Source: Thermoanaerobaculia bacterium (GTDB lineage: Bacteria > Acidobacteriota > Thermoanaerobaculia > Gp7-AA8). From it: a DNA stretch of 63,568 nucleotides. Made by a program: the position numbers and the translations under genes. Below the pieces are notes generated by a model. The model was not told where the DNA came from, made no database searches, and saw only the letters and a list, made by a program, of their open reading frames with translations. This document shows, in pieces, positions 8,040 to 37,873 of this stretch (position 1 is the stretch's first letter; every line of letters starts with the position of its first letter). The DNA is taken from positions 1-63,568 of the forward strand of contig JBKJQB010000024.1 of NCBI GenBank assembly GCA_046594105.1. Direction: 5' to 3'.

Positions 8040-8040
8040 G

Positions 8041-12404: not shown

Positions 12405-12433
12405 TTGACGTAAACTGTTGCAAGCCATGTAGT
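12405..12433 (+). promoter_or_regulatory. Sigma70-type promoter candidate
   Basis: TTGACG-N17-TGTAGT. Confidence 0.5.
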
Positions 12434-12452
12434 TGAAGGGCCACGCGTCGAG

Positions 12453-12468
12453 TGGCACCTGCGTCGCA
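12453..12468 (+). promoter_or_regulatory. Sigma54 -24/-12 promoter candidate
   Basis: TGGCAC-CTGCG-TCGCA: GG-N10-GC spacing is intact, one mismatch to TGGCAC-N5-TTGCW. The predicted start site would fall close to the ATG. Confidence 0.45.
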
Positions 12469-12483
12469 AAAGGGAGCATCCTC

Positions 12484-13059: not shown

Positions 13060-13679
13060 GCCGGAGCAGCGAGGAAATGATGAAGAGACGAGAAGCGAGC
13101 GGCTACAGCCTGATCGAAGTCCTGATCGCCATCGCCATCACCAGCGTGGTGCTGCTGACGGTGATCACCCTGTTCTACATGGGGCGGCGCAACGTCTACA
13201 GCGGCAAGCAGCAGACCATCGCCGTCGCCTCGGGCACCCAGATTCTGGAAGACCTCTCCACCATGACAGCGCAGGATCTGGGATCCAACTTCAACATCAA
13301 TGACGGCACGGCGCTCAGCACGGTCACGCTGCAGGGAGTGGCGGATGGCGTGAACGGGCAGCTGGCCTTCACCAACAGCGTCGGCCGTGACTCCAGCAAC
13401 TGTACCGTCGCTTCGACGACCCCGTACGCCATCACCTGCACGGACGATCCGAACGGGTACATGACCAAATGGCTGCGATTGTTGTCGCCCGCCGGAGACC
13501 GGAACGAAGTGCTCACCAACCCGGTGGTCGGCCTCGTCTTGCGGCCCCGCAATCCCACCGATAACGCCAAGGCATTCAGCACCGCCCGGTTCATCCGGGC
13601 ACGCGTCTATGTCTCGTGGGAAGAAGCACAGAATCGTCGCCGCTACGCGTTCTTCGACACCACGAAAGTGAACCGGTAG
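13056..13679 (+). CDS. Minor pilin, PilV-like
   Basis: SG|YSLIEVLIAIAI prepilin motif; second position in the operon. Confidence 0.8.
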   Translation: MSRSSEEMMKRREASGYSLIEVLIAIAITSVVLLTVITLFYMGRRNVYSGKQQTIAVASGTQILEDLSTMTAQDLGSNFNINDGTALSTVTLQGVADGVNGQLAFTNSVGRDSSNCTVASTTPYAITCTDDPNGYMTKWLRLLSPAGDRNEVLTNPVVGLVLRPRNPTDNAKAFSTARFIRARVYVSWEEAQNRRRYAFFDTTKVNR

Positions 13680-13691
13680 CCAGGAGCAGCC

Positions 13692-16600: not shown

Positions 16601-16796
16601 CTCTGCGAGTTCGTCGATGACGGTCCGGCTGCACTGGACTTTCAGAAAGAACGACGACAACCCCACAACCCTGGCCGGTCAACCGCTCTCGAAGATCTGC
16701 CTCGACTACACCATCCTCAGTGAGCCAGGCATCACCAAACACTGCAACCTGGTCGGGCAGAGCGCCAGCACCACCAACCCGACTTCGTGCGATTAG
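13692..16796 (+). CDS. Giant PilW-like minor pilin with fibronectin-III-like and Cys-rich beta domains (1034 aa)
   Basis: RG|FTLAEILVTT, PilW-like QQSTRIGFDKLVADLRMAG, then three FN3-like signatures (W..P...Y.(I/V)...YYY.V.A) and many Cys pairs. Confidence 0.8.
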   Translation: MKPTARHQQRGFTLAEILVTTAIFAVIMIAALSVYDQSNRVFKSGTESADMQQSTRIGFDKLVADLRMAGFDYNRGGTPTKTGEFPQQDEQIEYAGPTAVAFRGNFNYNTASSNGNGLEPTFTPKDPTTNAAIFPFVTTSDDEIVAYVTRSADNTQNTGSISFYVDAGKPRNVYPGGAAEALITISSALCATCGVDTSNANPPYTLYRMTLNDYKNRQPGTPIAENIRSLNFFYYTDANGQTVLKNNDATDITATRNADGSTVPATASVTILNSDGTTSTTTSNTGAIGGAGQYDPASPGTAANFVDRQQRTTIQSVRVNVIGMNANPEPGYTQRTESIARIKNYRQYALSALIVPRNLGLTGFPEPSNSAPSVPVITGICTAHCAAPVLCWAAPTGGGPVDQYRIEWDSVATGSFPNSLIVTDPTVTTAIIRDNGIMDPSITWYYRIFAQNDNGSSPPQNPTPAQPKNSTRPLPPAPGTITTSNAVNYAVTVGWVAPSNNDPAKATMNCTGAGCSTDPSTIPSQEIIKYRVYRGLTATFDPTNPAESSKVLAATTGVQPTSAGPGSPISWADSPSTSAFPSGTCVDYYYRVQAVDRCFSSNNYNTSGDLNDSISTISPPLGSNAILGRTNDLSTAKALGPVNLKVSSATSACPAPASLNCKVDLSWSKVTADNAGNAIGVDKYRLTRYRKKYLDPGFVLDTTFNLTGSLDMPGYSQSGTGLVGKTDTTGPAIDTADGAPWYYQYTVTANDCRLGLPSNTADFPTLCAGTPSTVSQVGASGGGSGDTVAQAWVMNSGDLLRITAAAGLTIANVKYDVFAYPSGTVADSVTTTASPTFPYVWSDRTDNQIYQIRIAITDSTGCTEVHVKYVKDEQAAPCAFGNVALTAFTSTTSGPTRSLFETYTVTNVATEALTFSAKPIKVTWAIPAGFAASHSDMTLDDITYSLGGSDGGANSGPGTVTRSIPAAAILSASSSMTVRLHWTFRKNDDNPTTLAGQPLSKICLDYTILSEPGITKHCNLVGQSASTTNPTSCD

Positions 16797-16808
16797 GAGT
16801 AGACGACA

Positions 16809-19382
16809 ATGAAACGCACATCACGTAGAAAACGACTCCTTCGCAACGACCGAGGCTCCGCGCTGCTGGTGAGCCTCATGGTCATCGTCGGGCTGTCGTT
16901 GCTCGGCCTCGGCTTCGTGGCCATCTCGGAGACGGAGACCGCCATCGCCAAGAACCAGCTGTCGGTCGTGCAGACTCAGGCTGTGGCGGAGGCGGGAGCC
17001 AAGCTCGTCGTGGAATGGTTCCAGGATCCAGTCTGGGCCGAGCTAAATGCAGGATTGCCCTTGAATGACGGGTCGGTGAACGCCAGTCTGGCAGCCATCA
17101 AAACCAACCGGGTGATCGCCGGGACCAACCCCATCAATGGCGTGTACAAGCCAGCCGCCAACATCCGGCTTCTGGAGAAACCATACCGGCCGAAACCGGA
17201 GAATCGATTCTATGGAGACGAGAACTCGGCCGATCTGATCATCAACCGGACCACCGACATCACCACCATCGACACCATCAACAACGTGTTGCTCGGAACG
17301 ACTGCGGAAGAACGCCGCAGTGGCGAGGTCACCGAGGTCAAGATTTACGCGCCGCCCATCGTGGGTGGAACGCTGCTCACCGACGGCACCACCACGAACG
17401 CGGACGGAACACCGCGGCGTTTCTGGGGCGGCACGGCAGAACGATTCGGCGTGGCCACCATCAAGGTCACCGCCACCATGTTCCGCGACCGCACGTTGAC
17501 CGGCGCGGCTCGCATGGCAGCATCGAACATCATGGCCTCCCATGCCGTGCGGCTGGTGGTCGGAGAGATTCCCCTCCCCATCCCCGGCGGCCCCATCCAG
17601 AGCAACACCTCGATTTCGTTCGGCGGCAACTTCGTCGTGCACTGGGGCAATGAGACGTCGACGACCGACCTCACCAACAAGCGGAATCCGAGCTCGCTCC
17701 CCTGGGCCAACGCCTACGAGCGCCCGCACTTCGAGCACGGCTACGAGCCGGGCCAAAGCATCTCCCAGATTCAGCTCACCTCCGGCGGATCGGGCTACCC
17801 GGGAGGAACGACCGTCAATATCGTCGGGGGGGGGGGCTCATTGGCGACCGCCACTGCCACTGTGACCGGCGGGGTCATCACCGCGGTCACTCTGACCGCG
17901 CGCGGCACGGGCTACTCCACCTCATCGCAGCCAACCATCACCTTCACGGGGGTCGGGGGCTCGGGTGCCTCCGCCACTCCCATCGTCGGAGCGGAAGTGT
18001 GGCCCACCACGCAGGCGTCCTTCGAGCAGGAAAACTATCTCAACGAAGTTCTCAACAAGACCTTCGAGGATCCCTGGTTCGGTTCGCGAGCCGTGCGCGA
18101 CAACTTCATCGATGGGGCCACAGCGTCGGGAGTTTTTCCGCAGTGCTACCCCTACTCGGCGTTATCGAACGAAACCAGTCCTCCCGGTTCCTACTTCTTT
18201 CAGTGGCAGGCAGCCAACACCTATCCATTGTTGAAAAAGGTCGTGTTCCCGACGATCAAATACGACTTCTGGAAGAGGATCGCCTCGCAGGGCCGCGGCT
18301 ACAAGGGGATCTACTACTTCAGCTTCGACAAGGCGGCCGGCAGCGGCTACAAGAAGGGTGGAACCGGTACCACTAAGCCGATGGCGTACTGGGCCAATTC
18401 TCTCAAGACCGGGCCGGGCGGGCGCCTCGGCCCCGGCGTGTACTTTTTCGACACCGTCGATGCGATCAACCCGCAGAATCTGATCGGCGGCGCACGCACT
18501 GCCCAGTTCACCCCCGCGGAGTCGTGGAACTCCTCCGATTACGGCTCTTCCTTCCTGATGGAGGGGTTCCTCTACGCGAACAACTCATCCTTCGGCACGC
18601 AGGGACAGGGCAGCTCCGCGGTAACGATCCAGGCAAACTTCCCCGGTGAGCCGTATCGCGATGTCGGTTGCCCCCTGTTTGACCTGGCCTCCAACGACTG
18701 GAACCGTACCTGTGCAGGAGCCATTTGTACGAAGGGCGCCGGCGATGGAATCTTCACCTCCGATGACCTGAATGGAAACCAGAGATTCGATGTCGTCACC
18801 ATGCCTGCCCCGGCCTGGCTGTCGAATGACCCCGGCCCCATTGCTCATGCTGCCGGAAGCACGTACATCGTCAAGACCTGGAAGTCGCCCTTGCAGGCCA
18901 CTGCCGACTACGGCGCACCCTGCACCGTTCCGGCCGTTGGATACAACGGGACGAATCCCGGCCCCAACGACTGCTCGGAGCCGCACGAGCCGTACCTCAA
19001 TCTGATCTACACAGGCACGGCCACCGATCCGCTCACCGTCGGATGGCAACCGTCGAACGGCTCCCAGACGTTTCTGAAGAAGAACACCGGCATCACCTGC
19101 ACCGCTGCGTCCGCGCAGACGGACTGCACCTCGAACGCTTACGACCTCGATGGCTCGCAGGTGCCCATCGACGTCATCCTCGACGGCATCTTCTACAACG
19201 AGGGCGGCTACGACACGCAAGGCAATACCGCCTACTACGGCTCGCTGCTCATCAATGGTGTGGTCACCGGAACCGGTACTCCCGACATCTGGTTCGACGA
19301 GAAACTCATCAAGGGCACCTGGGCTCCCCCGAACATGCCCCGGGTCATCGTCTACAACGAACAAACGGACGAAGAACAGTAA
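16809..19382 (+). CDS. Giant PilX-like minor pilin (857 aa)
   Basis: RG|SALLVSLMVIVGLSLLG lacks Glu5 (PilX/GspK hallmark); AQAVAEAG-type PilX N-domain; long Gly/Thr/Asn-rich extracellular region. Confidence 0.8.
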   Translation: MKRTSRRKRLLRNDRGSALLVSLMVIVGLSLLGLGFVAISETETAIAKNQLSVVQTQAVAEAGAKLVVEWFQDPVWAELNAGLPLNDGSVNASLAAIKTNRVIAGTNPINGVYKPAANIRLLEKPYRPKPENRFYGDENSADLIINRTTDITTIDTINNVLLGTTAEERRSGEVTEVKIYAPPIVGGTLLTDGTTTNADGTPRRFWGGTAERFGVATIKVTATMFRDRTLTGAARMAASNIMASHAVRLVVGEIPLPIPGGPIQSNTSISFGGNFVVHWGNETSTTDLTNKRNPSSLPWANAYERPHFEHGYEPGQSISQIQLTSGGSGYPGGTTVNIVGGGGSLATATATVTGGVITAVTLTARGTGYSTSSQPTITFTGVGGSGASATPIVGAEVWPTTQASFEQENYLNEVLNKTFEDPWFGSRAVRDNFIDGATASGVFPQCYPYSALSNETSPPGSYFFQWQAANTYPLLKKVVFPTIKYDFWKRIASQGRGYKGIYYFSFDKAAGSGYKKGGTGTTKPMAYWANSLKTGPGGRLGPGVYFFDTVDAINPQNLIGGARTAQFTPAESWNSSDYGSSFLMEGFLYANNSSFGTQGQGSSAVTIQANFPGEPYRDVGCPLFDLASNDWNRTCAGAICTKGAGDGIFTSDDLNGNQRFDVVTMPAPAWLSNDPGPIAHAAGSTYIVKTWKSPLQATADYGAPCTVPAVGYNGTNPGPNDCSEPHEPYLNLIYTGTATDPLTVGWQPSNGSQTFLKKNTGITCTAASAQTDCTSNAYDLDGSQVPIDVILDGIFYNEGGYDTQGNTAYYGSLLINGVVTGTGTPDIWFDEKLIKGTWAPPNMPRVIVYNEQTDEEQ
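17826..17836 (+). repeat. G11 homopolymer inside the pilX-like CDS
   Basis: GTC GGG GGG GGG GGC = V-G-G-G-G; 11 consecutive G. Confidence 0.95.
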
Positions 19383-19394
19383 TCGCGGTTCGTT

Positions 19395-19429
19395 CGCGGC
19401 GGGCAGGACTTCCTGCCCGCCGCGTTTTT
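19395..19429 (+). terminator. Intrinsic terminator of the minor-pilin operon
   Basis: CGCGGCGGGCAGG-ACTT-CCTGCCCGCCGCG 13-bp stem followed by TTTTT, 12 nt after the pilX stop. Confidence 0.85.
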
Positions 19430-19722
19430 GGGGGTTCCAGCCCATGGTCAGCGCGTGCACCGCTCAGCAAAGAGACCCACAGGGGTTCCCGACGCAGTCG
19501 GCGAAACGCCGTGAGTCTGCCGGCGCAAGCCGGCAATAGGTCCGTAGACCCCGGCTTCAGCCGGGGGCGGTCGAGCTCCCGACCCTGCGGCGCTGCGGAA
19601 TCCGCCCCCTTCACCCACCGTTGTAAACTACTCCCCTCCCGCATGAGTCCCGGCGGGAAATCCCTCGGCAATCGGAACGTTTGGCATCATCGGCCGTCGT
19701 AAAGGCAGGCCACAGAAGGACA

Positions 19723-20931
19723 ATGCCCGAATTCATCATCAGAGCCGGAACGCCCGATGGGCAGATCGTGGAGCGCCACGTCCAGGCTCTGAATTCGCGT
19801 GCCGCCCAGGAAGAATTGACCCGCCAGGGCATGCATGTCTTCGAGGCCAAGCGCGGGACCATGCACCTGCGCGACCTCCTGCCGCGCGGCGGCAAGATCA
19901 TCTCCACCGAACGATTCCTCGTCTTCAATCAGGAACTGCTGGCCCTGGTCCGGGCCGGACTGCCTATCCTGCAGTCCTTCGACATCATGCTGGAGCGGCA
20001 GAAGAACCTGCGCTTCCGCGACGTACTCATCGACATCCGGGACAAGCTGAAGTCCGGCATCTCGCTGTCCGACGCCTTCGCCTCTTACGGCGACCAGTTT
20101 CCTGCCATCTACTCGACCTCCATCCGGGCGGGAGAGCGATCCGGCGACCTGGAGGGCGTGCTCAAGCGTTTTCTTCGTTACCAGAAGATCATCGTCAACC
20201 TGCGGAAGCGGGTCATCGGCGCAATGATCTACCCCGCAGTGCTGATCGTTCTGTCGGCGGCCATGGTGTTCATCATGCTGACCCGGGTCATCCCGAAGTT
20301 CGCGGAGTTCTACGCCGGGTTCGGTGCCGAGTTGCCCTGGTTCACCACTTTGATGATCAAGGTGGCCAACCTCCTGAATCAGAACCTGATTATTCTCGTC
20401 GTGGTCTCCGTCGTCGGATTCGTCTTTTTCCGGCGCTGGGCATCGACCACCGGTCGCCTGCTTTACGACCGTTTCAAACTGGGAATCCCCCTGGTCGGGG
20501 GGATCCTTCACCGCTTCGCCATTCTGCAGTTCACCCAGTCGCTGGGGACTCTGCTCTCGGGCGGCACTCCCATGGTCCCGGCCATCGAGATCGCCTCGCA
20601 GTCGGTCACCAATCAGCTGGTGGCCACCCGGATCTACAGCATCATCCAGAACGTCCGGAACGGCGAGCCACTGTGGCGCTCGCTGGAGAGCACCAACGCC
20701 GTGAGCGACCTCGCCGTCGAAATGATCAAGGTCGGAGAGTCCACCGGAGCCTTGACGGAAATGCTGTCCAACGTCAGCGAGTTCTACGACGAGGAGATCG
20801 AGGCGCGGCTCACTCGTCTGGTGGCGGCCATTGAGCCGCTCATCCTGGTCTTCATGGGCATCGTGATCGCCACGCTGCTCTACGCCTTCTATCTCCCTCT
20901 GTTCCAGCTTTCGTCAGTGACACAGCAATGA
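19723..20931 (+). CDS. pilC: Type II secretion F / PilC inner-membrane platform protein
   Basis: Two T2SSF domains (AGERSGDL..., VGESTGALTEML...EP). ATG 19723 with GAAGGA RBS. Confidence 0.93.
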   Translation: MPEFIIRAGTPDGQIVERHVQALNSRAAQEELTRQGMHVFEAKRGTMHLRDLLPRGGKIISTERFLVFNQELLALVRAGLPILQSFDIMLERQKNLRFRDVLIDIRDKLKSGISLSDAFASYGDQFPAIYSTSIRAGERSGDLEGVLKRFLRYQKIIVNLRKRVIGAMIYPAVLIVLSAAMVFIMLTRVIPKFAEFYAGFGAELPWFTTLMIKVANLLNQNLIILVVVSVVGFVFFRRWASTTGRLLYDRFKLGIPLVGGILHRFAILQFTQSLGTLLSGGTPMVPAIEIASQSVTNQLVATRIYSIIQNVRNGEPLWRSLESTNAVSDLAVEMIKVGESTGALTEMLSNVSEFYDEEIEARLTRLVAAIEPLILVFMGIVIATLLYAFYLPLFQLSSVTQQ

Positions 20932-20966
20932 CGCGCCCCGACGGCGCCTGACCTTCAAAGAGACCA

Positions 20967-22589
<1,623 letters not shown>

Positions 22590-22655
22590 TGCGCGAGCCT
22601 TCAGTCATGACGAGCCTGCTGCATCGCGGACCCTCTCCTTTGAGTCACCGAACGA

Positions 22656-22711
22656 CCCCTCATCCGCCTTCGGCACCTTCTTCCCGCTGCGGCGGGGAGA
22701 AGGAACTCGAT
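22656..22711 (+). repeat. R3 REP-like element
   Basis: CCCCTCATCCGCCTTCGGCACCTTCTTCCCGCTGCGGCGGGGAGAAGG; related copies at 29912 (-) and 29988 (+). Confidence 0.85.
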
Positions 22712-22862
22712 CGTAAGGGGCCGCGTCCAGTCTGTGTCCTCAGAAGACGCGCAGACGGCGAAGGGCCTGCCTGTGAGAAGAAGCGAGGTCGACTTTCTCT
22801 CAATCCTTCCTTTCCAAGCTCCTTCTCCGCAACTCTGACTGTGCATCCGTCGTCCAACTGAC

Positions 22863-23759
22863 ATGGCTCGATCTTTTCCACCGGACGTGATCGTCCTCGA
22901 TACCGATGCGCTCGTGCATGCGCGCGTGGGACGGGGCGTGAAGAACCCGCAGATCATGCAGGCCAAGAGCTACCGGCTGGCGTCCGACACGTTCCTCCCC
23001 TCCGTGGTCACGCCGGAACTGGCTTCCGACGTGGGGCTGGCCGAGGCGGTGCGGAGGATGAAAGGGGAGACGGGCCGCTGGAGCAAGGCGTCGCTGCTGC
23101 TTCCTGACTCCTGGTTCCGCATGAACATCCTGGAGATCCCCACGCTGCCCGACAAGAGCGACGAGGCAGACGCCATGATCCGGTGGAGCCTCAAGCGCAC
23201 CATGCCGCTGGAGGGTTCCCAGCTCCGTCTGGCCTACGAGGTGCTCGACCGCGGCGCGAGCGGCGTTCGCGTCCTCGCCGTGAGTGCGGTGGAAAAGACT
23301 CTGGTCGCGATCGAACGAGTCTTCGAAGCGGCCGGCATCGAGATCGTCCTGATCGAGCCGGTAGGCCTGAACATCTGGAATGCCGTGACCGTCCGCGAGC
23401 CCTCCACCGCCGGGGACCGCATCTTTTTTTACGTCCGCGATCAGGACTTCACCACCGCCGTGTTTCGTGGTGGTGCTCCCCTGTTCATCCGCTCGCGAAA
23501 CCTCAATGCCCAGCGCAGTCTCCAGCAGGAGATCAAGCTCTCCGCCTCCTATCTCCGCGACACCCTGGGCACGGAGACGATCGAGAACTGTTACCTCTGT
23601 GGCAACCAGCTGGCTGCCGGACTGGCGGATGAAATCGCGACGGAGTTCTCCGCGCCGGTGCGGGTGGTGGCTCTGCGCGACTTCACCGAGCACACCCCCG
23701 AGGGTGTGGGAGCATACGAAGCGGAGCTGACTGCCTGCACGGGAGTGTTCACAGGTTGA
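22863..23759 (+). CDS. pilM: PilM/GspL-like cytoplasmic alignment protein
   Basis: Position before pilN and pilO; actin-like-fold PilM-type segments (LLLPDSWFR...WSLKRTMP). Confidence 0.7.
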   Translation: MARSFPPDVIVLDTDALVHARVGRGVKNPQIMQAKSYRLASDTFLPSVVTPELASDVGLAEAVRRMKGETGRWSKASLLLPDSWFRMNILEIPTLPDKSDEADAMIRWSLKRTMPLEGSQLRLAYEVLDRGASGVRVLAVSAVEKTLVAIERVFEAAGIEIVLIEPVGLNIWNAVTVREPSTAGDRIFFYVRDQDFTTAVFRGGAPLFIRSRNLNAQRSLQQEIKLSASYLRDTLGTETIENCYLCGNQLAAGLADEIATEFSAPVRVVALRDFTEHTPEGVGAYEAELTACTGVFTG

Positions 23760-24331
23760 AACCGATCCATCTGAATCTCGCCGCGCGCCCTCACCGCGAT
23801 TACCGTCCGTATGTCGCCGCCGTGGTGTTCAGCTCTCTGCTGATCGCCTACCTCACCGTGACGAACTTCGACACTTGGTACCGCTATCGAAATGAAACGC
23901 AGACCACACGGACCAGGATCGAGTCGCTCGATCACCAGACCGAAGAGGAGCAGCACCGCACCGACGCAGTGAACCAGCGACTGCGGGCCGTCGACGTGAA
24001 AGTGCTGGCCACCCAGACCCAGTTCGCCAATGCCCGGCTGGCCGAGCGGGCCTTTTCCTGGAGCGAGCTTCTGGATCGACTGGAGCGGGTATTTCCCAAC
24101 AACGTTCGCATCGACTCGATCGCGCCAAGTTTCGGCAAGACCGGCCTGGTGCACCTCACGCTGCAATGCGTAGCCAAGACTGGTGACGGGTTGGTCACCA
24201 CGCTCGATCGCTTCAATCGCGACGGCCATTTCGCCAACGCGTTCCCCGCCAACGAAGACCATGCCGAACAGGGATACCGTTTCCTCCTCGGCGTGGACTA
24301 CCGGCCGTCGATCGCGAGGTCGGTCGAATGA
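23756..24331 (+). CDS. pilN: PilN-like alignment protein
   Basis: IHLNLA N-terminal motif, one TM helix, coiled coil, WSELLDRLERVFP. Confidence 0.8.
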   Translation: MKPIHLNLAARPHRDYRPYVAAVVFSSLLIAYLTVTNFDTWYRYRNETQTTRTRIESLDHQTEEEQHRTDAVNQRLRAVDVKVLATQTQFANARLAERAFSWSELLDRLERVFPNNVRIDSIAPSFGKTGLVHLTLQCVAKTGDGLVTTLDRFNRDGHFANAFPANEDHAEQGYRFLLGVDYRPSIARSVE

Positions 24332-24960
24332 TCTGGCGCGAGAAACGAATCTCCCTGGCCATCCTCGCCGTTCTTCTGCTGGCGAATGTCCTCTTCTTCT
24401 TTACCTACCGGGTGCAGTACCAGAACCGGCTGCAGGATCTCGAGGGCCGCCTGCGCGCCAGTCAGGACCGCCTGGCCCAGGCCCAGCGCATGCGCACCAC
24501 GGCACAACAACAGCTTGATGGTTATCGCAAAGTGCAGCAGGACCTCCAGGCTCTCTACAACCAGCGCTGGTCGACGCAGGCCGCGCGGTTCACATCGTTG
24601 ATCATCGAGGTCAAGCGGCTGGTGGTGGCCAGCCAGCTGGTGTTGCCCCGAAGCTCCTCCTTCAGCCGCACCGAGGCGCGCACCACCAAAGAAACGGGCG
24701 CCATCGACACCGCGGTCGTCGGAATCAACTTCACCGTCCAGGGCTCTTACGAGCAGGTGCGCAGGCTGATCAATCTGCTGGAGCTTTCCAACCAGTTTGT
24801 GATCATCGACGGCATCAGCCTCGGGAGCGGGAACGACAAGATCCTGACCCTCAATCTCCGTCTGAAGACGCTGTTCCGCGAACCAACGCAGCAGAATGCA
24901 CCGCCGGCATTCGGATTCAGTGAGCCGGCCAGAACTCCCGCTCGGAATCAGGGACTGTGA
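24328..24960 (+). CDS. pilO: PilO/GspM-like alignment protein
   Basis: TM helix, coiled coil, V.GSYEQVRRLINLLE ferredoxin-like motif. Confidence 0.8.
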   Translation: MIWREKRISLAILAVLLLANVLFFFTYRVQYQNRLQDLEGRLRASQDRLAQAQRMRTTAQQQLDGYRKVQQDLQALYNQRWSTQAARFTSLIIEVKRLVVASQLVLPRSSSFSRTEARTTKETGAIDTAVVGINFTVQGSYEQVRRLINLLELSNQFVIIDGISLGSGNDKILTLNLRLKTLFREPTQQNAPPAFGFSEPARTPARNQGL

Positions 24961-25631
24961 TGGATTGGATGAGCTGGAAAACCTGGGGCATCATCGGGCT
25001 GGCGCTTCTGGCCGTCTTCGCCATCTATTCGTTCGCCGCCCCATCGGCCCCGGCGGAGTCCGCCATCGTTTCGTCAGAGACGGTGGGCCGGACTCCGGCG
25101 CGCTCGCCGCGCGTGACGGCCGCGCCGGCGCGTGGCGTCGGCGTCCTGCACAGCGAGTGGCTGGATAAAGTCACCGGCAGCTACCGGAGCGAGCGGAATC
25201 TGTTCTCCTACGTGGAGCCGCCCCCTCCCCCGCCTCCTCCACCGCCGAAGCCGCCCCCGCCTCCGCCCGACAAAGACAAGGACGGCATTCCCGACTTCAA
25301 GGACAACTGCCCTGACAAGGCCAACCCCGATCAGGCCGATATCGACGAGAACGGCATCGGCGACGCCTGTCAGGCCGGTGAGATCATCCGCAAGGTTCAC
25401 CTGCCGCCTCCGCCGCAGCCGCCGCCGTTCAGCTTCAAGTACATCGGGACCTTCGGAACGCCGTCGAGCCCGATTGCCACCTTCTCGGGCAACGGTGAGA
25501 TCGTCAACGTGCGTGTGGGGGAGACCTTCGCCGGGAAGTTCGTTCTGCGCAGCATCGGCATCGAGTCGGTGGAGATCGGATTCGTCGGCTTTCCCTCGGA
25601 CATCAAGACGCGCGTTCCTGTCGGAGAGTGA
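24957..25631 (+). CDS. PilP/GspC-like protein with a thrombospondin type-3 Ca-binding repeat
   Basis: N-terminal TM helix, RNLF, Pro-rich linkers, DKDKDGIPDFKDNCPDKANPDQADIDENGIGDAC, C-terminal HR/PilP-like domain (FKYIG...VRVGE). Confidence 0.7.
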   Translation: MMDWMSWKTWGIIGLALLAVFAIYSFAAPSAPAESAIVSSETVGRTPARSPRVTAAPARGVGVLHSEWLDKVTGSYRSERNLFSYVEPPPPPPPPPPKPPPPPPDKDKDGIPDFKDNCPDKANPDQADIDENGIGDACQAGEIIRKVHLPPPPQPPPFSFKYIGTFGTPSSPIATFSGNGEIVNVRVGETFAGKFVLRSIGIESVEIGFVGFPSDIKTRVPVGE

Positions 25632-25720
25632 CGTTTGGACCGTTTGGACCGTCAGAAGCAACGTGTGAGAGAGTGGCCCGGAACGGACACCCGCGCACAG
25701 GACTCAGGACTGAAAACGAA

Positions 25721-28207
25721 ATGAATCGACTGAAGATCGCAATCGCCGCACTGGCCGTCTCCCTTCCCCTGCTCTCGTGCGCCAGCTACAACGCGTACGA
25801 GAAGGCGAGAACCGCTGAGAAGCTGAAGAACTGGGACGACGCTGTCATCGAGTATCAGAAGGCGCTGGAAGTCGATCCGCAGAACCTTCGCTACCGGGTC
25901 TCCCTGCAACGGGCCAAGCTGGAGGCTTCCCGCGTTCACTTCGAGAAGGGCAAGACCCTGCGCACCGCGGCCATGCAGTCGGTCGGTCCGGACCAGCTCC
26001 GCCTGGCCCAGCTGGCATCCGCCGAGCTCGAGCTCACGGTGAAGCTGGATCCCTCCAACCAGTTCGCGGCCGTGGAACGCGACAAGGCGGTGGGAACGAT
26101 CAACGATCTGACCGTGCGCAACGATGCCACCCTCTCCATCGACGACATCAAGAAAAAAGCGCGCAACAACGTTTCCAAAGCACAGCCCCCCCAACTCAAC
26201 CCCGCCTCCGATCAGCCCATCTCTTTGAGCTTTCCGCGGGAGACTCCGATCAAGGAGATCTACAAGGCGCTGGGAAACGCATTCGGCATCAACATCCTCT
26301 TCGATCAGGCCATCAAGGACAGCGACCGGCTCTCCATCGAGCTCAAGGACGTCACCGCGCAGGAAGCTCTCGAGCGGGTCATGCAGGCGGTCAATCACTT
26401 CTACAAAGTGCTGGACTCCCACTCCATCATCGTGGTTCCGGACAACCCGCAGGCGCGCCGTGACTACGAGGATCTGGTCATCCGCACGTTCTATCTCTCC
26501 AACGGCGACGCCGAGCAGGTCACCAACGTGGTGCGGACCATGATCGAGGCGCGCAACGTGTTCCCGCTCAAGGCCCTCAACGCCATCACTATCCGGGACA
26601 CCGCCGACAAGGTGCGCATCGCCGAGAAGATCATTGAGGCGAACGACAAAGCGAAAGCGGAAGTGGTCGTCGACGTGGAACTGGTGCAGCTCGATCTCAA
26701 CCGCGGGCGGGACATGGGATTCGCCCTCAGCGCGCAGAGCGGCTCCATCCAACCGCAGGGCTCGGTCACAGACACCGCCGGCAAAACCACCGGCGGCACC
26801 ATCAGCTCCATCCTTCTGAGCCAGCTCAAGACCCTCGGCCACAGCGGGAACTACTCCATCACCCTGCCCACGGCCAGCTACGCGCTGCTGAAATCGATCA
26901 GCAACGTCTCCCTGCTGGCCAACCCCGAGTTGCGGATTTCCGAGGGGGAGAAGGCCACGCTGCACATCGGCAACCGCATCCCCGTTCCGGTCACCACGTT
27001 CACCACGGCGGTGCAGCAGAACAACTTCGGCAGCCTTCCGGCCACGTCGTACCAATACCAGGACATCGGCATCAAGGTGGCCATCGAACCGCGCGTGCAT
27101 CACAACCGCGAGGTCACGTTGAAGCTGACAGTAGAAGTCTCCAGCCAGGGTCCGGACGCCCCGGCACCGGCAGGTCAGATCGCCCAGCCGACCTTCATCA
27201 CACGCACCATCGAGTCGACCATCCGCCTGAAGGATGGCGAGACCAACTTCCTGGCGGGCCTCATCCGGGAAGACCAGACCAACTCCGATCAGAAGACGCC
27301 ATTCCTGGGCGACCTGCCGTTCATCGGCCGGCTGTTCACCCAGAACCGCCAGCTGTCGCTCAAAACCGACCTCATTCTGACCATGACTCCGCACATCATC
27401 CGGATCCCCGACATCACCGAGGACGATCTGGCGCCGATGTGGGTCGGAACGACCAACAATCTGACCTTCCGCGGGATGTCGCCACGGCTGGAGTCGCGAT
27501 CGGCAACCGATCCGTTCGTCAATCGCTCCTCGGCCAGCAGTCAGTTCGGCACCGACGCAGCGACCGGCCTGCCGCTCGCTGACGGAGAACCGGGCAATGT
27601 GGTCCGTCCTCAAGGCACCGGACCGATCGCACCGGGGACTGCGCCCAACGATAGGTTCCGCAATTCGCCTCCCCCACCACCGCCTGTCCGGCCTCCATCG
27701 AACAGCAGCCTGGTCTGGCCGAAGCCCGTGGGCAGCGAACCGGACGGAACTCTTGCGGCGGCGACGTCGAGATCCGCTTCGTCCGATTCCGATGGCCTCT
27801 CGCCGCGCATCTCGCCGCAACCGGTGCATCTGTCCCTTCGCAGCGGGGAAGAGAAACTGTGGACTGTGGTGGGCATGGACCTCGACGGTCTGAGCACGAA
27901 TCGAATCGTGCTCCACTACGACCCGCGCACGCTCGACGTTTCCGAGGTGTTGTTCGGGCCGGCACTGGCCATCGACATCAAGGTTCCTCCGGTGGTGGTC
28001 ATCGACCGCAACGGCGGAACGATCAAAATCACTTCCTCGAACGGTCAACCCCTGTTGTTCAAAGGCGGGGGAGACATCGCCATGCTGCGGGTGCACGGTG
28101 GCATCGGCGGAGAGACGTTCCTGGTGCTGGAGAATCCTGATTTGAAGAACGGTCACGGAGACACCGTGGCGTCGGCCGTCTCCGGAGGACGCGCGAAGGT
28201 CGAATGA
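25721..28207 (+). CDS. Secretin (GspD/PilQ family) lipoprotein with N-terminal TPRs and a C-terminal cohesin-like domain
   Basis: Lipobox LLSC, TPR-like helices, N domains, secretin core (LLANPELRISEGEKA...LGDLPFIGRLF...LILTMTPHII). Start reassigned to ATG 25721. Confidence 0.9.
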   Translation: MNRLKIAIAALAVSLPLLSCASYNAYEKARTAEKLKNWDDAVIEYQKALEVDPQNLRYRVSLQRAKLEASRVHFEKGKTLRTAAMQSVGPDQLRLAQLASAELELTVKLDPSNQFAAVERDKAVGTINDLTVRNDATLSIDDIKKKARNNVSKAQPPQLNPASDQPISLSFPRETPIKEIYKALGNAFGINILFDQAIKDSDRLSIELKDVTAQEALERVMQAVNHFYKVLDSHSIIVVPDNPQARRDYEDLVIRTFYLSNGDAEQVTNVVRTMIEARNVFPLKALNAITIRDTADKVRIAEKIIEANDKAKAEVVVDVELVQLDLNRGRDMGFALSAQSGSIQPQGSVTDTAGKTTGGTISSILLSQLKTLGHSGNYSITLPTASYALLKSISNVSLLANPELRISEGEKATLHIGNRIPVPVTTFTTAVQQNNFGSLPATSYQYQDIGIKVAIEPRVHHNREVTLKLTVEVSSQGPDAPAPAGQIAQPTFITRTIESTIRLKDGETNFLAGLIREDQTNSDQKTPFLGDLPFIGRLFTQNRQLSLKTDLILTMTPHIIRIPDITEDDLAPMWVGTTNNLTFRGMSPRLESRSATDPFVNRSSASSQFGTDAATGLPLADGEPGNVVRPQGTGPIAPGTAPNDRFRNSPPPPPPVRPPSNSSLVWPKPVGSEPDGTLAAATSRSASSDSDGLSPRISPQPVHLSLRSGEEKLWTVVGMDLDGLSTNRIVLHYDPRTLDVSEVLFGPALAIDIKVPPVVVIDRNGGTIKITSSNGQPLLFKGGGDIAMLRVHGGIGGETFLVLENPDLKNGHGDTVASAVSGGRAKVE

Positions 28208-33054: not shown

Positions 33055-34800
33055 GTGATCACCTATCTCAAAGTCCGGAACCTGGCCATCGTCGAAGAGT
33101 TCGTCATCGAGCCAGGCCCCGCACTGAACGTCCTGACCGGCGAGACGGGGGCGGGAAAGTCCCTGCTCATCGACTCGCTGGAGCTCCTCCGCGGCGCTCG
33201 AAGCTCCTCGGAGATGATCCGCACCGGTGCCGAAAAAATGTCCGCTGAGGCGGTCTTTCATCTCCCGGCCGCGGCAGCGGACGCGCTGGAGGAGATTGGC
33301 GTGGAGATCGATCGCAGCGGGGAAGTTCTCGAGTTGATCGTGAAACGGGAGCTCTCCACGAACGGTCGAGGGCGCGTTCTCCTCAATGGCTCTCCCCTCT
33401 CCGTGCGCGAGCTTGCCATGGCCATGGAGCCGGCGCTGGAGATTCACGGCCAGCACGATTCCCACGCACGTGTCGCCGGACAAGGCTACCGGGAACTGGT
33501 GGACGACTTCGCCGGCAATGAGTCGTTGCGCGGGGCCACTGCCCTGGCCCATTCCACGTGGCGCACCGCCTCGGAAAGCCTGCAGCAACTGACCGAAGCA
33601 CAACGCGACCGCGCCCTCCGGCTCGATCTGCTCCAGTATCAGATCGAAGAGATCTCCACCGCCAGAGTCGATCCGGGGGAAGAAGATCCGTTGCGCAACG
33701 AACGGAGCCTGCTAGCCAATGCGCGGGAGCTGGCCGACGCCACCGGCGGCGCCTTCGCCCTGCTCGATGAAGAGGACTCCTCCGCGCTGGCGCAGCTCGG
33801 TCGGGCCTCTCATCTCCTGGCGCCGCTGTCACGGGACATCGCGGACGTCCGCGCGATCACCGCCGATCTTCAGGAAACGATCTACCGCCTGCAGGAGACC
33901 TCGCGAGCTCTCTCGCGCATGGCGGAGTCGATCCGCCATGACCCGGCTCGCCTCGAGGAGATCGAAGACCGGCTGATCACACTGGAACGGTTGAAGAAAA
34001 AGTACGGAGGATCGATCGAAGAGGTGCTGCGTCATCTGAGCGGCGCCCAGGACGAATTCGAGCAGCTTCGCGACTACGAAGCGAACCTGGAAAAGCTCGA
34101 ACGGATCGAGTCCGAACGCTTCTCCCAGTTCCAGGAGGCCGCGGCAGCGCTCTCCGCATCGCGGAAAAAGGCGGCCAGAGTCTTCCAGGAGGCGATCCAG
34201 GCGGAGTTGAACGATCTGGCCATGGAACGCACCACCGTGCGCATCGCGGTCAGCACCGCGCCGGCAACGGACTCACGACTGAGCATCGACGATCAGCCCG
34301 TAGCCTTCGGCGCTGATGGCTTCGACCGCATCGAGATTCTGATCGCTCCGAACCGAGGCGAAGAGCCAAAGGCCATGCAGAGAATCGCATCCGGTGGCGA
34401 GCTCTCCCGGATCCAGCTGGCCATTGCCGCCGCCCTGTTCAAAGCGTCGGAGGACACCGCTTCCGCCACTCTGGTCTTCGACGAGATCGATGCCGGAATC
34501 GGAGGAAGGGTGGCCGAGGTGGTGGGCCGCAAGCTTCAGGAACTGGCGACACGCAACCAGGTCATCTGCGTGACGCATCTTCCCCAGATCGCCAGCTTCG
34601 GGACCACTCACTTCTTCGTGTGGAAGGAGGATGCCGCCGGTCACACCCGCGCCCGCATCCGCCGGCTCGACGAACGCGAGGAACGCGTCCAGGAAGTGGC
34701 TCGGATGCTCGGAGGCCAGTCCATCCCGGCGTCGGCAGTCCTGCACGCGCGGGAGCTGCTCGACGCGGCTCTGCAGAAACCGGCGAAAGCGCGGCCATGA
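33055..34800 (+). CDS. recN: DNA repair protein RecN
   Basis: LTGETGAGKS, coiled coil, ASGGELSRIQLA, LVFDEIDAGIGG, VTHLPQIA. Confidence 0.96.
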   Translation: MITYLKVRNLAIVEEFVIEPGPALNVLTGETGAGKSLLIDSLELLRGARSSSEMIRTGAEKMSAEAVFHLPAAAADALEEIGVEIDRSGEVLELIVKRELSTNGRGRVLLNGSPLSVRELAMAMEPALEIHGQHDSHARVAGQGYRELVDDFAGNESLRGATALAHSTWRTASESLQQLTEAQRDRALRLDLLQYQIEEISTARVDPGEEDPLRNERSLLANARELADATGGAFALLDEEDSSALAQLGRASHLLAPLSRDIADVRAITADLQETIYRLQETSRALSRMAESIRHDPARLEEIEDRLITLERLKKKYGGSIEEVLRHLSGAQDEFEQLRDYEANLEKLERIESERFSQFQEAAAALSASRKKAARVFQEAIQAELNDLAMERTTVRIAVSTAPATDSRLSIDDQPVAFGADGFDRIEILIAPNRGEEPKAMQRIASGGELSRIQLAIAAALFKASEDTASATLVFDEIDAGIGGRVAEVVGRKLQELATRNQVICVTHLPQIASFGTTHFFVWKEDAAGHTRARIRRLDEREERVQEVARMLGGQSIPASAVLHARELLDAALQKPAKARP

Positions 34801-35390
34801 GACTGTGGAAGGTGGACGGCGAACCGTCGGAGGAGATCATTGCAGCCGTTGCCACGATCCTGAAAGCGCGAGGCGTGGTTCTGATGCCCACGGACACCAT
34901 CTACGGCCTTCATGGTCTAGCCGGCAATCCCGCGATCAACGAGAGGATCGCTCGGATCAAGGGACGCTCGGAGGACAAACCATTTGTCATCATCGCGGCG
35001 AACCTCGTCCAGCTCATAGAGCTCGATCTTCTCATCCCGGAAGTGCTCGAGAGTCTGTGGCCCGCTCCGCTCACAGCAATCCTGCCGAGAAAAAGCAGCA
35101 CTGCATTGGCGGTTCGCGTTCCAGACAGTCGATGGCTGCGCGATCTGCTCGAGCTCACCGGACCTCTCGTCTCCACCAGCGCGAATCCAAGCGGAGAACT
35201 TCCGATAACTTCTCCATCGCAGCTTCCGGACAGCCTGCAATCCGCGCTCGACGCGATCGTTGATGGCGGTGTGCGCGAGGCGAAAGCCTCAGCGATCGTG
35301 GACTTTACCGGGGCACAGCCCAGGCTGACCCGGGAGGGCGATCCGGGCTTTACACAGAAACTGCGGAAAACGCTGCGGAAAAGCCTGTGA
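34797..35390 (+). CDS. tsaC: L-threonylcarbamoyladenylate synthase (TsaC/Sua5/YrdC)
   Basis: PTDTIYGL, KGRSEDKPF, LVSTSANPSG; ATG overlaps the recN stop. Confidence 0.9.
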   Translation: MRLWKVDGEPSEEIIAAVATILKARGVVLMPTDTIYGLHGLAGNPAINERIARIKGRSEDKPFVIIAANLVQLIELDLLIPEVLESLWPAPLTAILPRKSSTALAVRVPDSRWLRDLLELTGPLVSTSANPSGELPITSPSQLPDSLQSALDAIVDGGVREAKASAIVDFTGAQPRLTREGDPGFTQKLRKTLRKSL

Positions 35391-35580
35391 AAAACTCACA
35401 GAATCGCAAAAAACCGGCCGCTTGCAGCGATTTGCACAATGAGTTGGGCGAATTCTGCTAAACCGTTCTTTTTTTAACTAGTTAAGTTCGTCGAAGCGCG
35501 AAATAGCAGCACCTCTTGTGCACTTTGTGAAGCGACGAACCAAGTTTCCACAGAGAATTTTGCACCGCGCCTCTGGAAAA
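35348..35580. promoter_or_regulatory. Cluster of DnaA-box-like 9-mers with an AT-rich core (oriC candidate)
   Basis: Eight sites within one mismatch of TTWTNCACA (35348, 35362, 35374, 35386 perfect, 35430, 35544, 35558, 35572) flanking TTCTTTTTTTAACTAGTTAAGTT. Confidence 0.65.
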
Positions 35581-35674
35581 GGCGCGCTGGGACGAGGCCA
35601 CGGGGCCCGTGAGACTCAGCCTTCCAATCGAGAAATACGCGAATAGCGCCTGCGCCATCAAGGAATCGAGGCGC

Positions 35675-37072
35675 TCAACCGCGCCCGAGATAGCGCAGGG
35701 CCAGGCTGGCCAGACCGAGAAAGGAGAAGAAACCTCCCACATCGGTGAATGTCGTTACGAAGATCGAGGAAGCGATGGCCGGATCGAAGCCGAGCTTCTC
35801 CAGGAGCAGAGGAACCAATCCTCCGGCAAATCCTGCGATGACCAGATTGAAAGTCATGGCCAGCAGAAGGATCGTGGCGAGGATCCAGTCCCCTGTCCAG
35901 AACCCGACCACGACCGAGGTGAGCAGCCCATTGGCCGCACCATTGAAGAAGCCGACGAAGACTTCCTTCCAGATCGGACGCCAGCCGGTCGACCAGTCGA
36001 CCTCGCCGAGCGCAAGACCGCGCACGAACACAGTCAGCGTCTGCGTGCCGGCGTTTCCACCCATCCCCGCAACGATGGGCATGAACACGGCGAGCGCAGC
36101 CCACTTGGCGATGGTTCCCTGAAACATGCTGACCACCCAGGACGCCAGGAAGGCGGTGGCCAGATTGATGGCCAGCCAGGGGAAGCGCATCCGGAACGAC
36201 TGAATCCCGGGAGTGCTCACCCGCTCGGCCGCGGCGACGCCGGCGAGATGGAGAAGATCTTCTTCGGCCTGCTCCTGGATGACGTCGATGACGTCGTCGA
36301 CGGTGACCACGCCGACCAGGCGGTTCTGCCGATCGACCACCGGAACGGAGAGCAAGTCGTACTTGGAAACAATCTGGGCGACTTCTTCCGGCTCCGCGTC
36401 GATCTGGCAGCGCACCACGCTCTGCACCATGGTGTCGCGCAGGTGAGCAAGTGGAGGAGCCAGAATGAGGCTGCGCAGCGAGAGCACTCCGTCCAGATGA
36501 CCTTCGCTGTCGGTGCAATAGACGTAGAAGAACGAGTCCTTGCTCGGATACTGCCGGATGGCCTCGATGGCCTGCCCCACGGTCAGGTCCACATCGAGTG
36601 CGAGGTACTGCGTGGTCATCAGCGAGCCGGCGGTCTCTTCCTCTCCCTCCAGCAGGGACTCCAGTTTGGCGCCCTGAGCAGCGCCGAGGAGGCCGAAGAT
36701 GCGCTGGCGGCGATCCTGGTCCAGAGAGTCGAGCAGATCGGCAGCGTCGTCGGGAGCCGACGAACTGCAGATGGCAGCGAGGGTGGGATCGTCGACGGCG
36801 TCGACCATCTCCGCGAGATCAGAATCGTCCAGCGAGAGAATCGCGCGCGCGGCTTTTCCGGCCTCGATGAGCAGCGAGAGGACGCGGTTCCGGTCGTCTT
36901 CCAGCAGCAGTGGCAACGCCGGTGCGATGTCCGCGGCCATGGTCTTGTCCACGATCTTCCGCAGTTGCGGATATGCGCCATGGCGCAGCAGCTTGGTCAG
37001 CAGCTGCTGATAGGACCGCGCGTTGGCGGTCGGAGGCGCGGGCGCCGGAGCGGGACGGTTCACGCTCCGCAT
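35675..37072 (-). CDS. mgtE: Magnesium transporter MgtE
   Basis: MgtE_N, paired CBS domains (TAGSLMT..., LVGVVTVDDV), GMGGNAGTQ, TTFTDVGG. Alternative start GTG 37063. Confidence 0.95.
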   Translation of the reverse strand: MRSVNRPAPAPAPPTANARSYQQLLTKLLRHGAYPQLRKIVDKTMAADIAPALPLLLEDDRNRVLSLLIEAGKAARAILSLDDSDLAEMVDAVDDPTLAAICSSSAPDDAADLLDSLDQDRRQRIFGLLGAAQGAKLESLLEGEEETAGSLMTTQYLALDVDLTVGQAIEAIRQYPSKDSFFYVYCTDSEGHLDGVLSLRSLILAPPLAHLRDTMVQSVVRCQIDAEPEEVAQIVSKYDLLSVPVVDRQNRLVGVVTVDDVIDVIQEQAEEDLLHLAGVAAAERVSTPGIQSFRMRFPWLAINLATAFLASWVVSMFQGTIAKWAALAVFMPIVAGMGGNAGTQTLTVFVRGLALGEVDWSTGWRPIWKEVFVGFFNGAANGLLTSVVVGFWTGDWILATILLLAMTFNLVIAGFAGGLVPLLLEKLGFDPAIASSIFVTTFTDVGGFFSFLGLASLALRYLGRG

Positions 37073-37135
37073 GCTAAATCAGATGCCCGTCCGTTGATCC
37101 CTCCAATCGGAAGGCCGCGCTACAATCCCGGCATC

Positions 37136-37873
37136 ATGACCACCACCGCCGAGCCCCAAACGAAACCTGCGTCACCCGAAGCGCCGGCCATCCGACGCCA
37201 GTTCGTCAACTTCCTTTTCTTCCGCGCCGACCGTGCGCTGCGCCACGAGAGCCGCGAATTGAAAGAGCAGGCCTCCCGTGAATTTTCGGAGATCGTTCAC
37301 CGCTATACCGGGCCGATGATGATCCTTCCCTACTCGACGATCGGATTGAAGTCGAACACCGATTTCATGCTCTGGCGCATTGGCTACGAGCTCGAGCCGT
37401 TCCAGCAGATGATCTCCGACATCAACAAGTCCATCCTGGGCCGTTACCTCGACGTGCCGGCCTCGTACCTCTCCATGACCAAGCATTCGCAGTACGTCGA
37501 CGAGCACGTGCATGAAGGGCAGGAAGGGCGGCGCCTGAAAATCGTTCCCGGCAAAAAGCCGCTCCTGTTTGTCTATCCCTTCGTGAAAACGCGCGACTGG
37601 TACCTGCTCCCCATGGCCGAAAGGCAGCGCATCATGAACGAGCACATCGCCATCGGGCACAAGTACCCCCGTGTGAAAATCAACACGACCTACTCGTTCG
37701 GACTGGACGATCAGGACTTTGTGGTGGCCTTCGAGGCCGACTCCGCCGCCGAGTTCCTCGACCTGGTGCAGGAGTTGCGCGAGACGGAGTCGTCGAAGTT
37801 CACCCTGCGCGATACGCCGATGTACACCTGCAAGCGCGCCTCGATCGAAGAGATTCTGGAGTCGCTGGCGTAG
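37136..37873 (+). CDS. Chlorite dismutase / coproheme decarboxylase (ChdC/HemQ) family heme protein
   Basis: YPFVKTRDWYLLP..ERQRIMNEHIAIG..Y, YSFGLDDQDFVVAFE. The true start is ATG 37136; the 754-aa track ORF is an artefact. Confidence 0.85.
   Translation: MTTTAEPQTKPASPEAPAIRRQFVNFLFFRADRALRHESRELKEQASREFSEIVHRYTGPMMILPYSTIGLKSNTDFMLWRIGYELEPFQQMISDINKSILGRYLDVPASYLSMTKHSQYVDEHVHEGQEGRRLKIVPGKKPLLFVYPFVKTRDWYLLPMAERQRIMNEHIAIGHKYPRVKINTTYSFGLDDQDFVVAFEADSAAEFLDLVQELRETESSKFTLRDTPMYTCKRASIEEILESLA

Follow-up and report, generated by a model that had tools for sequence, protein, structure and literature searches.

A Probable DnaA-Box Cluster outside the Replication Origin

Non-origin sites that control DnaA (datA, DARS1 and DARS2, the clusters of Bacillus subtilis) are understood in only two model organisms. 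Nearly all chromosomal targets of Escherichia coli DnaA are bound as pairs of boxes separated by 2-3 bp (PMC11317965). The core of the DnaA-reactivating sequences (DARS) contains boxes in opposite orientation with a 5-bp space and a degenerate box III' (PMC6868365). In B. subtilis, one conserved cluster of DnaA boxes outside the origin is located where the convergent genes gcp (tsaD) and ydiF meet at their 3' ends, and another lies on the upstream side of ywlC (tsaC). The biological role of the gcp-ydiF cluster was described as "not clear", and the clusters jointly restrain initiation by binding DnaA (PMC2533591, PMC3245932). The stretch of DNA considered here (the window; 63,568 nucleotides of contig JBKJQB010000024.1 from a Thermoanaerobaculia bacterium, Acidobacteriota) holds an array of DnaA-box-like sites at positions 35348 to ~35566. 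This element is located between the convergent genes tsaC and mgtE and overlaps the end of tsaC. The original prediction presented it as a candidate replication origin, oriC or a DnaA-titration site.

The element is read here as an autonomous, conserved, cis-acting DnaA-box cluster outside the origin, which would regulate or titrate DnaA. This reading is considered moderately probable. Several boxes, a high local density and conservation among relatives, by which non-origin DnaA-box clusters are recognised, were all found at this locus.

A Conserved Array of Boxes at the 3' End of tsaC

Boxes were defined as 9-mers with at most one mismatch to TTWTNCACA on either strand. The eight 9-mers of the original prediction were reproduced (35348+, 35362-, 35374-, 35386-, 35430+, 35544+, 35558+ and 35572-), and the claimed spacings of 12 bp (35362/35374/35386) and 14 bp (35544/35558/35572) are correct. 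The number of boxes in the entire 63.5-kb window is near chance (25 observed vs. 22.7 expected), and 8 of these 25 fall in only 233 bp (35348-35580). Dinucleotide shuffles of the same 233 bp contained 0.81 +/- 0.88 matches, and 0 of 2000 reached eight. When only the non-coding part was considered, four matches were found against 0.48 expected, and again none of the 2000 shuffles contained as many. In 321 kb of related DNA, clusters of at least four boxes per 250 bp were represented by copies of this element only.

The other sequence features of the prediction were also recovered. The lowest 30-bp G+C content of the whole window (0.23) is in 35450-35496, two degenerate boxes with three mismatches each occupy 35517-35534 of the minus strand, and the TsaC tail KLRKTLRKSL is encoded by boxes 2-4, the last of which includes the stop codon. 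The palindrome TTAACTAGTTAA is present at 35474-35485, as claimed, and is not kept even in the 95%-identical locus L002. The eighth match (35572-35580) is probably not part of the element because it lies inside a strong hairpin (35566-35589), in a stretch that diverges at the neutral rate. The hairpin itself (CGCGCCTCTGGAAAAGGCGCG) is found just beyond the conserved element, and its folding energy is -15 to -17 kcal/mol on either strand. There is no U-run after it on either strand, and it may mark the 3' end of mgtE.

Relatives were gathered with TsaC scans, which provided five genome loci (L002-L006) and approximately 25 metagenome loci (L018-L042, L047). The nearest ones are metagenome-assembled genomes labelled Thermoanaerobaculia or Acidobacteriota. 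The TsaC proteins of related loci are 47-58% identical to that of the window, apart from L002 with 95%. The DNA around each tsaC stop was printed and aligned, and 31 copies of the element from ~30 loci were compared. The order of the conserved blocks is identical throughout. The core reads TTT[A/G/T]CACAG, 3 nt, [C/G]TG[C/T]GGAAAA, 2 nt, CTG[C/T]GGAAA and CTGTGAAAAAC, which carries the stop codon. It is followed by an A-run spacer of fixed length, (A)GCGnTTTGCACAA, TG[G/T]GCGAA, a variable AT-enriched spacer, T(A/T)GCA, TTGTGCACTT and TTTCCACA. The element can be described as a four-box core (35348-35394) and, after 37-38 bp, distal inverted TGCACAA boxes together with the TTTCCACA box (Table 1).

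The four-box core has no insertion or deletion in the 31 copies, and box 5 follows box 4 at a distance of 37-38 bp in 30 of them. Box 1 has at most one mismatch in 29 of 31 copies and varies at positions 1 and 5 only. Box 2 stays within one mismatch in all 31 copies and is a perfect TTTTCCACA in 14, while box 4 is perfect in 21. Box 3 is the weakest of the core (at most one mismatch in 15 of 31 copies and at most two in 30). In the distal part, none of the 13 aligned group-1 loci differs in the TGCACA of box 5, nor do the group-2 loci. Its invariant inverted partner is TTGTGCA of box 7, 81-84 bp away in group 1. The block TGGGCGAA between them has three mismatches in the window; in other relatives it reads TGTGCGAA, i.e., TTCGCACA, and direct reading of their TGTGCGAAA version gives one mismatch. 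In the T(A/T)GCA block (alignment columns 164-168), G, C and A are kept in 13 of 13 loci. The TTTCCACA at box 8 is almost invariant across group 1, and box 9 is common only to the window, L002 and L019.

In the group-2 relatives, TTGTGCAC is replaced by the palindrome TTGTCAC-TTGACAA. It occurs as TTGTCAC-TTGACAA(A) in seven loci (L004, at 10740-10760, L005, L006, L034, L036, L039 and L047), ~130 nt past the tsaC stop, and a repeat resembling GTTCACAgGGAnnTCACA is present in the same seven loci ~60 nt past the palindrome. Both may be a site for a different factor.

Table 1. Features of the element and the genes around it (positions in the window).
Feature	Positions	Strand	Remarks
Last 14 codons of tsaC (F-T-Q-K-L-R-K-T-L-R-K-S-L-stop)			Written by boxes 1-4
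Box 1, CTTTACACA	35348-35356	+	Only box of the core in plus orientation; equivalent of DARS box I
Box 2, TTTTCCGCA	35362-35370	-	5 bp from box 1, in opposite orientation, CACA ends facing
Box 3, TTTTCCGCA	35374-35382	-	Tandem with box 2, 3-bp spacer
Box 4, TTTTTCACA	35386-35394	-	Tandem after 3-bp spacer; holds the tsaC stop TGA (35388-35390)
Spacer	35395-35429		Fixed length; conserved A-run CGCAAAAAA (35405-35413); variable, often self-complementary arms
Box 5, ATTTGCACA	35430-35438	+	TGCACAA (35433-35439) invariant
Conserved block TGGGCGAA	35445-35452	-	Weak inverted box, 5 bp after box 5
AT-rich spacer	35453-35503		Variable in sequence, constant in length; contains the palindrome 35474-35485
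Conserved block T(A/T)GCA (window TAGCAGC)	35504-35510	+	9 nt upstream of box 7
Box 7, TTGTGCACT	35516-35524	+	2 mismatches
Box 8, GTTTCCACA	35544-35552	+	26-29 bp after box 7
Box 9, TTTTGCACC	35558-35566	+	Outer edge of the conserved element
recN	33055-34800	+
tsaC (TsaC/YrdC family, L-threonylcarbamoyladenylate synthase family)	34797-35390	+	Pfam PF01300 on an identical Logan contig
tsaC-mgtE gap			284 bp
mgtE	35675-37072	-
HemQ-like gene	37136-37873	+	Followed by an MFS transporter gene

Selection on the DNA and Survival of Detached Copies

A comparison of the window with L002 delimits the element. Positions 35348-35390 are identical (43/43) and positions 35391-35566 are 97.7% identical, as compared with 88-90% at the third codon positions of recN, tsaC and mgtE and 88%, the neutral level, in 35567-35674. 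The identity falls to the neutral level after 35566; therefore, the element ends near this position. From 35348 to ~35566, it is under strong purifying selection. Three of the four differences inside the element fall in the AT-rich spacer.

The protein-coding part of the element is constrained in an unusual way. The third-position conservation of the last 13 tsaC codons is 0.89, while it is 0.60 in the gene body (24 loci) and 0.64 in those columns of the body in which the amino acid is invariant. The tail codons TTT and AAA, which end in A or T, are fixed despite a genome G+C content at third codon positions (GC3) of ~0.8. Changes of the protein leave the boxes intact. T/A/S substitutions land on the free position 5 of box 1, and a change from R to W (CGG to TGG) even improves box 2 from TTTTCCGCA to TTTTCCACA. 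In L019, the stop codon TGA is changed to TGC and the protein is extended, and box 4 is still a perfect TTTTGCACA. Selection acts on the DNA, and it is the DNA that constrains the tail of TsaC and not the reverse, because the tail codons are fixed at their third positions.

The element goes with the 3' end of tsaC, and mgtE is found downstream in only about half of the loci. The description "between tsaC and mgtE" in the original prediction is thus incidental, as many relatives have no mgtE there. Five loci (L020, L021, L032, L035 and L038) have an insertion after tsaC, and downstream of it is a full copy of the element that is still conserved. The regions concerned are 10591-13139 (L020), 10591-10854 (L021), 10414-10834 (L032), 10579-13083 (L035) and 10582-12847 (L038), and in L020, L035 and L038 the inserted DNA is a ~2.2-kb gene for a secreted protein. 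The insertions duplicated the 3' end of tsaC and with it the box core; the downstream copy is complete, and the one attached to tsaC is partial or decayed.

A decayed remnant of the 3' end of tsaC stands in front of the detached copies, whose core is non-coding there yet conserved. They often have TGC in place of the former stop codon, with box 4 as a perfect TTTTGCACA. In L035 and L038, boxes have disappeared from the tsaC tail, and the detached copy lies 2.5 kb downstream. TsaC does not need the tail, because the detached copies stay conserved while the tsaC tails of L035 and L038 have lost boxes. The element is autonomous and is kept by the chromosome, not by the protein. Conservation in relatives had been proposed as a check of the original prediction, and in this respect it passed: boxes, order and spacing are kept in the 31 copies, including those detached from tsaC.

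Conservation of this kind could also reflect selection on RNA, with the sequence acting as a tsaC 3' untranslated region, a terminator or a small RNA. The element starts within the coding end of tsaC, and many loci can form a short hairpin at the post-stop A-run, frequently with a T-rich stretch behind it. In the window, the first 55 nt past the stop fold to -10.2 kcal/mol, the spacer 35395-35429 may be a weak tsaC terminator hairpin, and one terminator-like match was found on the minus strand (35430-35418). However, Rfam has no match in this region even at E = 10, and the region was covered both by a scan of 35200-35800 and by one of the window. RNAalifold predicted no consensus pairs in the post-stop segment and, for the whole element on either strand, only the invariant TGCACAA/TTGTGCA repeat with no compensatory change. 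The presence of the motif in both orientations suits a DNA-binding protein rather than one transcript, and the detached copies keep the element outside the context of the tsaC mRNA. No RNA-seq run with the window sequence was found. An RNA-level element is considered highly improbable.

The Putative Binding Protein and a Possible Mechanism

The variation among the 31 copies is concentrated at box positions 1 and 5, which are left free by TTWTNCACA. Boxes 2, 3 and 4 form a tandem array with 3-bp spacers, like the arrangement preferred by E. coli DnaA. Judged by its sequence, the element would be bound by DnaA, and the complex would in turn have an effect on DnaA.

In the proposed mechanism, DnaA protomers would occupy the tandem boxes 2-4 cooperatively, and a head-to-head pair of DnaA would form across the 5-bp gap between boxes 1 and 2. 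Further protomers may bind to the inverted TGCACAA boxes that bracket the AT-rich spacer, approximately eight helical turns apart. The resulting nucleoprotein complex would control the amount of active DnaA that is available. It might exchange the bound nucleotide in the manner of DARS, or else titrate DnaA or inactivate it, for instance through hydrolysis, in the manner of datA and the B. subtilis clusters. Duplex opening for the initiation of replication would not be among its functions.

The main rival explanation is an array of binding sites for another DNA-binding protein, a nucleoid-associated protein or a transcription factor, which would recognise TTTNCACA / TGCACAA and be unrelated to DnaA. 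The most invariant words of the element (TGCACAA, TTGTGCAC, TTTCCACA and CTGCGGAAAA) are not canonical DnaA boxes, the group-2 palindrome TTGTCAC-TTGACAA is typical of dimeric regulators, and the constant 81-84 bp between the inverted TGCACAA words suggest looping by an oligomeric factor. Nevertheless, the pattern of fixed and free positions follows TTWTNCACA, and the 3-bp tandem and 5-bp inverted spacings reproduce known DnaA arrangements. Moreover, the element is tied to no promoter: different genes follow it on the right, and the downstream genes have promoter-like sequences of their own. Another DNA-binding protein is regarded as unlikely. A promoter scan detected no sigma-70-like promoter in the region. 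Sites for sigma-54 (GG-N10-GC around CATCCNTTGCA), a CRP-like TGTGA-N6-TCACA, parS, LexA and IHF were checked by eye, and none is conserved across the alignments.

The Element and the Replication Origin

An origin at this locus would have DnaA filling the boxes on both sides and melting the AT-rich spacer 35453-35503. Such a function is compatible with at least eight DnaA-box-like sites in ~220 bp, in both orientations and with fixed spacing between the boxes. The spacer includes the 30-mer with the lowest G+C content of the window. The corresponding DNA of relatives is enriched in AT, although it reaches just 0.30-0.40 G+C over 30 bp, in comparison with 0.23 in the window. All related loci that are sequenced far enough have kept the element, including those with insertions.

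The strand asymmetry of the surrounding DNA argues against this function. The sense-strand GC skew at third codon positions (GC3 skew) of genes on both strands was compared to the left and right of the element, which separates the skew linked to transcription from that linked to the strand. Genes were called with a self-trained codon model in 15 loci, and the window was repeated with genes verified by Pfam or NCBIfam only; the outcome was the same. The pooled strand component is -0.041 on the left (95% confidence interval -0.062 to -0.016) and -0.044 (-0.065 to -0.023) on the right, where 12 of 13 loci have a negative value even though the right-hand genes vary between loci. For the window with verified genes only, the strand component is -0.062 in the 35-kb left arm and -0.039 in the 28-kb right arm, and both confidence intervals are below zero. 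In almost every locus, the skew of the whole sequence is likewise below zero to the left and to the right. A consistent non-zero skew means that strand asymmetry exists, and an origin or a terminus would reverse its sign; no reversal is seen. The cumulative skew minimum, by which the original prediction was to be checked, is therefore not at this element.

Gene orientation and gene content point in the same direction. Genes of the left flank (69 on the plus and 23 on the minus strand, i.e., 75% plus) run into the element, whereas the opposite direction would be expected beside an origin. As a separate observation, ~64% of the called genes (104 of 162; window and 14 loci) are on the strand that is C-rich at third positions when the direction of transcription is accounted for. 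By the usual convention, this would be the lagging strand, and the local gene-strand bias is unusual. Linkage to dnaA and diverging genes are common at origins, but they are not obligatory. The original prediction had noted that dnaA is absent from the window, and tblastn with E. coli DnaA indeed found no match. The same searches with DnaN, RecF, RpmH, RnpA and YidC gave none in the window (28-35 kb on each side), and the whole marker set gave none within 10 kb of the element in 30 related loci. The neighbours are instead the pilus, recN, mgtE, hemQ-like and MFS genes. Origins distant from dnaA do exist, e.g., in E. coli (PMC8287927).

The basal unwinding system of bacterial origins consists of a box, a spacer of 0-16 bp and then at least three NAN triplets (PMC8287927). 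The scan for such runs covered both sides and both strands. In the window, the run AAA TAG CAG CAC (35501-35512, plus strand) gives four NAN triplets 3 bp from box 7. Among 12 relatives, L031 has three such triplets and conforms to the rule; the other 11 loci have at most two, and the run is thus missing in 11 of 13 loci. The DnaA-trio layout proposed in the original prediction holds for the window under the permissive NAN rule but is kept in only one relative. The element resembles an oriC with a basal unwinding system in its box-like sites in both orientations around an AT-rich stretch and in the four triplets of the window. It differs in that a skew switch, divergent genes, conserved trios and origin-linked genes are not found.

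The boxes form a genuine, strongly conserved cluster that probably does not serve as a replication origin. Half of the original prediction has thus survived. A DnaA-box cluster is supported by 31 conserved copies and the tandem 3-bp spacing that E. coli DnaA prefers, whereas oriC is not supported, in view of the constant skew, the genes that converge on the site, the absence of origin genes nearby and the trios that are not conserved. An oriC at this position is considered very unlikely.

Comparison with Known DnaA-Regulating Sites

The closest described arrangement is that of DARS. Direct reading of E. coli DARS1 gives TTATCCACT, 5 bp, TGTGGATAA, 3 bp and TGTGTATTA, and DARS2 reads TTATTCACC, 5 bp, TGTGGATAG, 3 bp and TGTGAAGAA. 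The tandem boxes start at 622/634 in the locus with DARS1 (L099) and at 450/462 in the locus with DARS2 (L101). The core of the window reads CTTTACACA, 5 bp, TGCGGAAAA, 3 bp, TGCGGAAAA, 3 bp and TGTGAAAAA. In all three, a box is followed by 5 bp, an inverted box with the CACA ends facing, 3 bp and a tandem box, with no difference in orientation or in either spacing. In addition, DARS1 contains a fourth, degenerate box, and a fourth box is present in the window core. Both DARS and, as it is read here, the element are located outside oriC, and both have additional conserved DNA flanking the core.

There are also differences. Descriptions of DARS are limited to E. coli and closely related beta- and gamma-proteobacteria, and its absence from B. 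subtilis has been reported. The core of the element overlaps coding sequence and a stop codon and has four boxes, none of which is canonical. Inspection of the alignments revealed no positionally conserved match to WATCAANNNNTTR and no recognisable conserved site of the IHF or Fis type. On these comparisons, the element may be a genuine DARS-type DnaA-reactivating sequence in Acidobacteriota, with its core written into the last codons and the stop of tsaC, but this more specific reading is doubtful and is put forward only tentatively.

The B. subtilis clusters at gcp-ydiF and ywlC-ywlB are similar in another respect. They are conserved clusters away from oriC and next to genes of N6-threonylcarbamoyladenosine (t6A) synthesis, and the gcp-ydiF cluster is at the 3' ends of convergent genes, as is the window element. 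However, their boxes are canonical TTATNCACA, they are mostly near oriC, and they were defined by chromatin immunoprecipitation. The ywlC cluster is upstream of ywlC and repressing, whereas the cluster of the window is at the 3' end of tsaC. These similarities do not imply homology, and the shared proximity to t6A genes may be a coincidence. With datA of E. coli, the element shares the non-origin position and a tandem pair of boxes spaced by 3 bp, and both may act on the availability of DnaA. In contrast, datA depends on an IHF site, promotes the hydrolysis of DnaA-bound ATP and has no inverted pair 5 bp apart.

Several points weigh against the reading of the element as a non-origin DnaA-box cluster. 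No box is the canonical TTATCCACA. Boxes 2 and 3 mostly have G at position 7 (TTTTCCGCA), where TTWTNCACA fixes A, and box 7 and the TGGGCGAA block match poorly. The boxes were scored against TTWTNCACA, which may not be the preferred box of the DnaA of this lineage. The match to DARS consists of the orientation and two spacings and was noticed afterwards; given a box cluster, it is estimated to arise by chance in a few percent of cases, a frequency too high to be neglected. Additionally, the function of DARS presupposes a cycle between ATP-DnaA and ADP-DnaA, which is documented only in E. coli and near relatives. Finally, the distal half of the element is origin-like, as its boxes flank the most AT-rich 30-mer in 63 kb, and the universal retention in relatives is what an essential origin would show. 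For these last two reasons, the probability of oriC was not set lower still.

Genomic Setting

The G+C content of the window is 63%. The TsaC product scores 116 bits against NCBIfam TIGR00057, slightly below the cutoff of 123. The sequence of the window occurs in DNA soil metagenomes only, on short contigs, and the sole exact contig is 3.9 kb long. No records were found for the proteins encoded at the ends of the window. Just 63 bp (37073-37135) separate the divergent starts of mgtE and the hemQ-like gene, and the Rfam scan reported no M-box riboswitch upstream of mgtE.

Farther away, a long one-strand cluster resembling type IV pilus and type II secretion systems extends over 12433-28207 (plus strand). 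It contains GspH-like and N-methyl pilins, T2SSF, T2SSE and a secretin, and PilT-like ATPases are found upstream of it on the opposite strand (6969-10785). Two Acido-Lenti-1 RNAs (6455-6500, minus strand, and 6605-6650, plus strand) are inverted, ~100 bp apart, and flanked by a prepilin peptidase gene and a PilT-like ATPase gene; their scores are 54.5 and 57.5 bits, and the gathering score is 37. There are also a selenocysteine tRNA (5349-5442) and a second tRNA (2411-2483), both on the minus strand. The second tRNA is inside a long open reading frame (957-2612, minus strand), which has no Pfam match and probably does not represent a true gene along its entire extent.

Significance

In the last codons of a conserved gene, the element provides a clean example of DNA-level selection that prevails over codon preference as well as over the identity of the amino acids. 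It also carries a warning for work on metagenome-assembled genomes, in which the prediction of origins from box clusters may pick a regulatory cluster instead of oriC.

DARS in particular is viewed as peculiar to E. coli and bacteria close to it. The occurrence of the same core geometry in a deeply conserved element of an uncultured soil lineage of another phylum would make the generality of this mechanism directly testable with recombinant DnaA and a 220-bp fragment. If the DARS-type reading were true, the element would be the first DARS outside Proteobacteria, and head-to-head DnaA dimers on a core of box, 5 bp, inverted box, 3 bp and box would be an ancient way of resetting the initiator. 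In this case, a regulatory DNA site would dictate the C-terminal tail of a protein.

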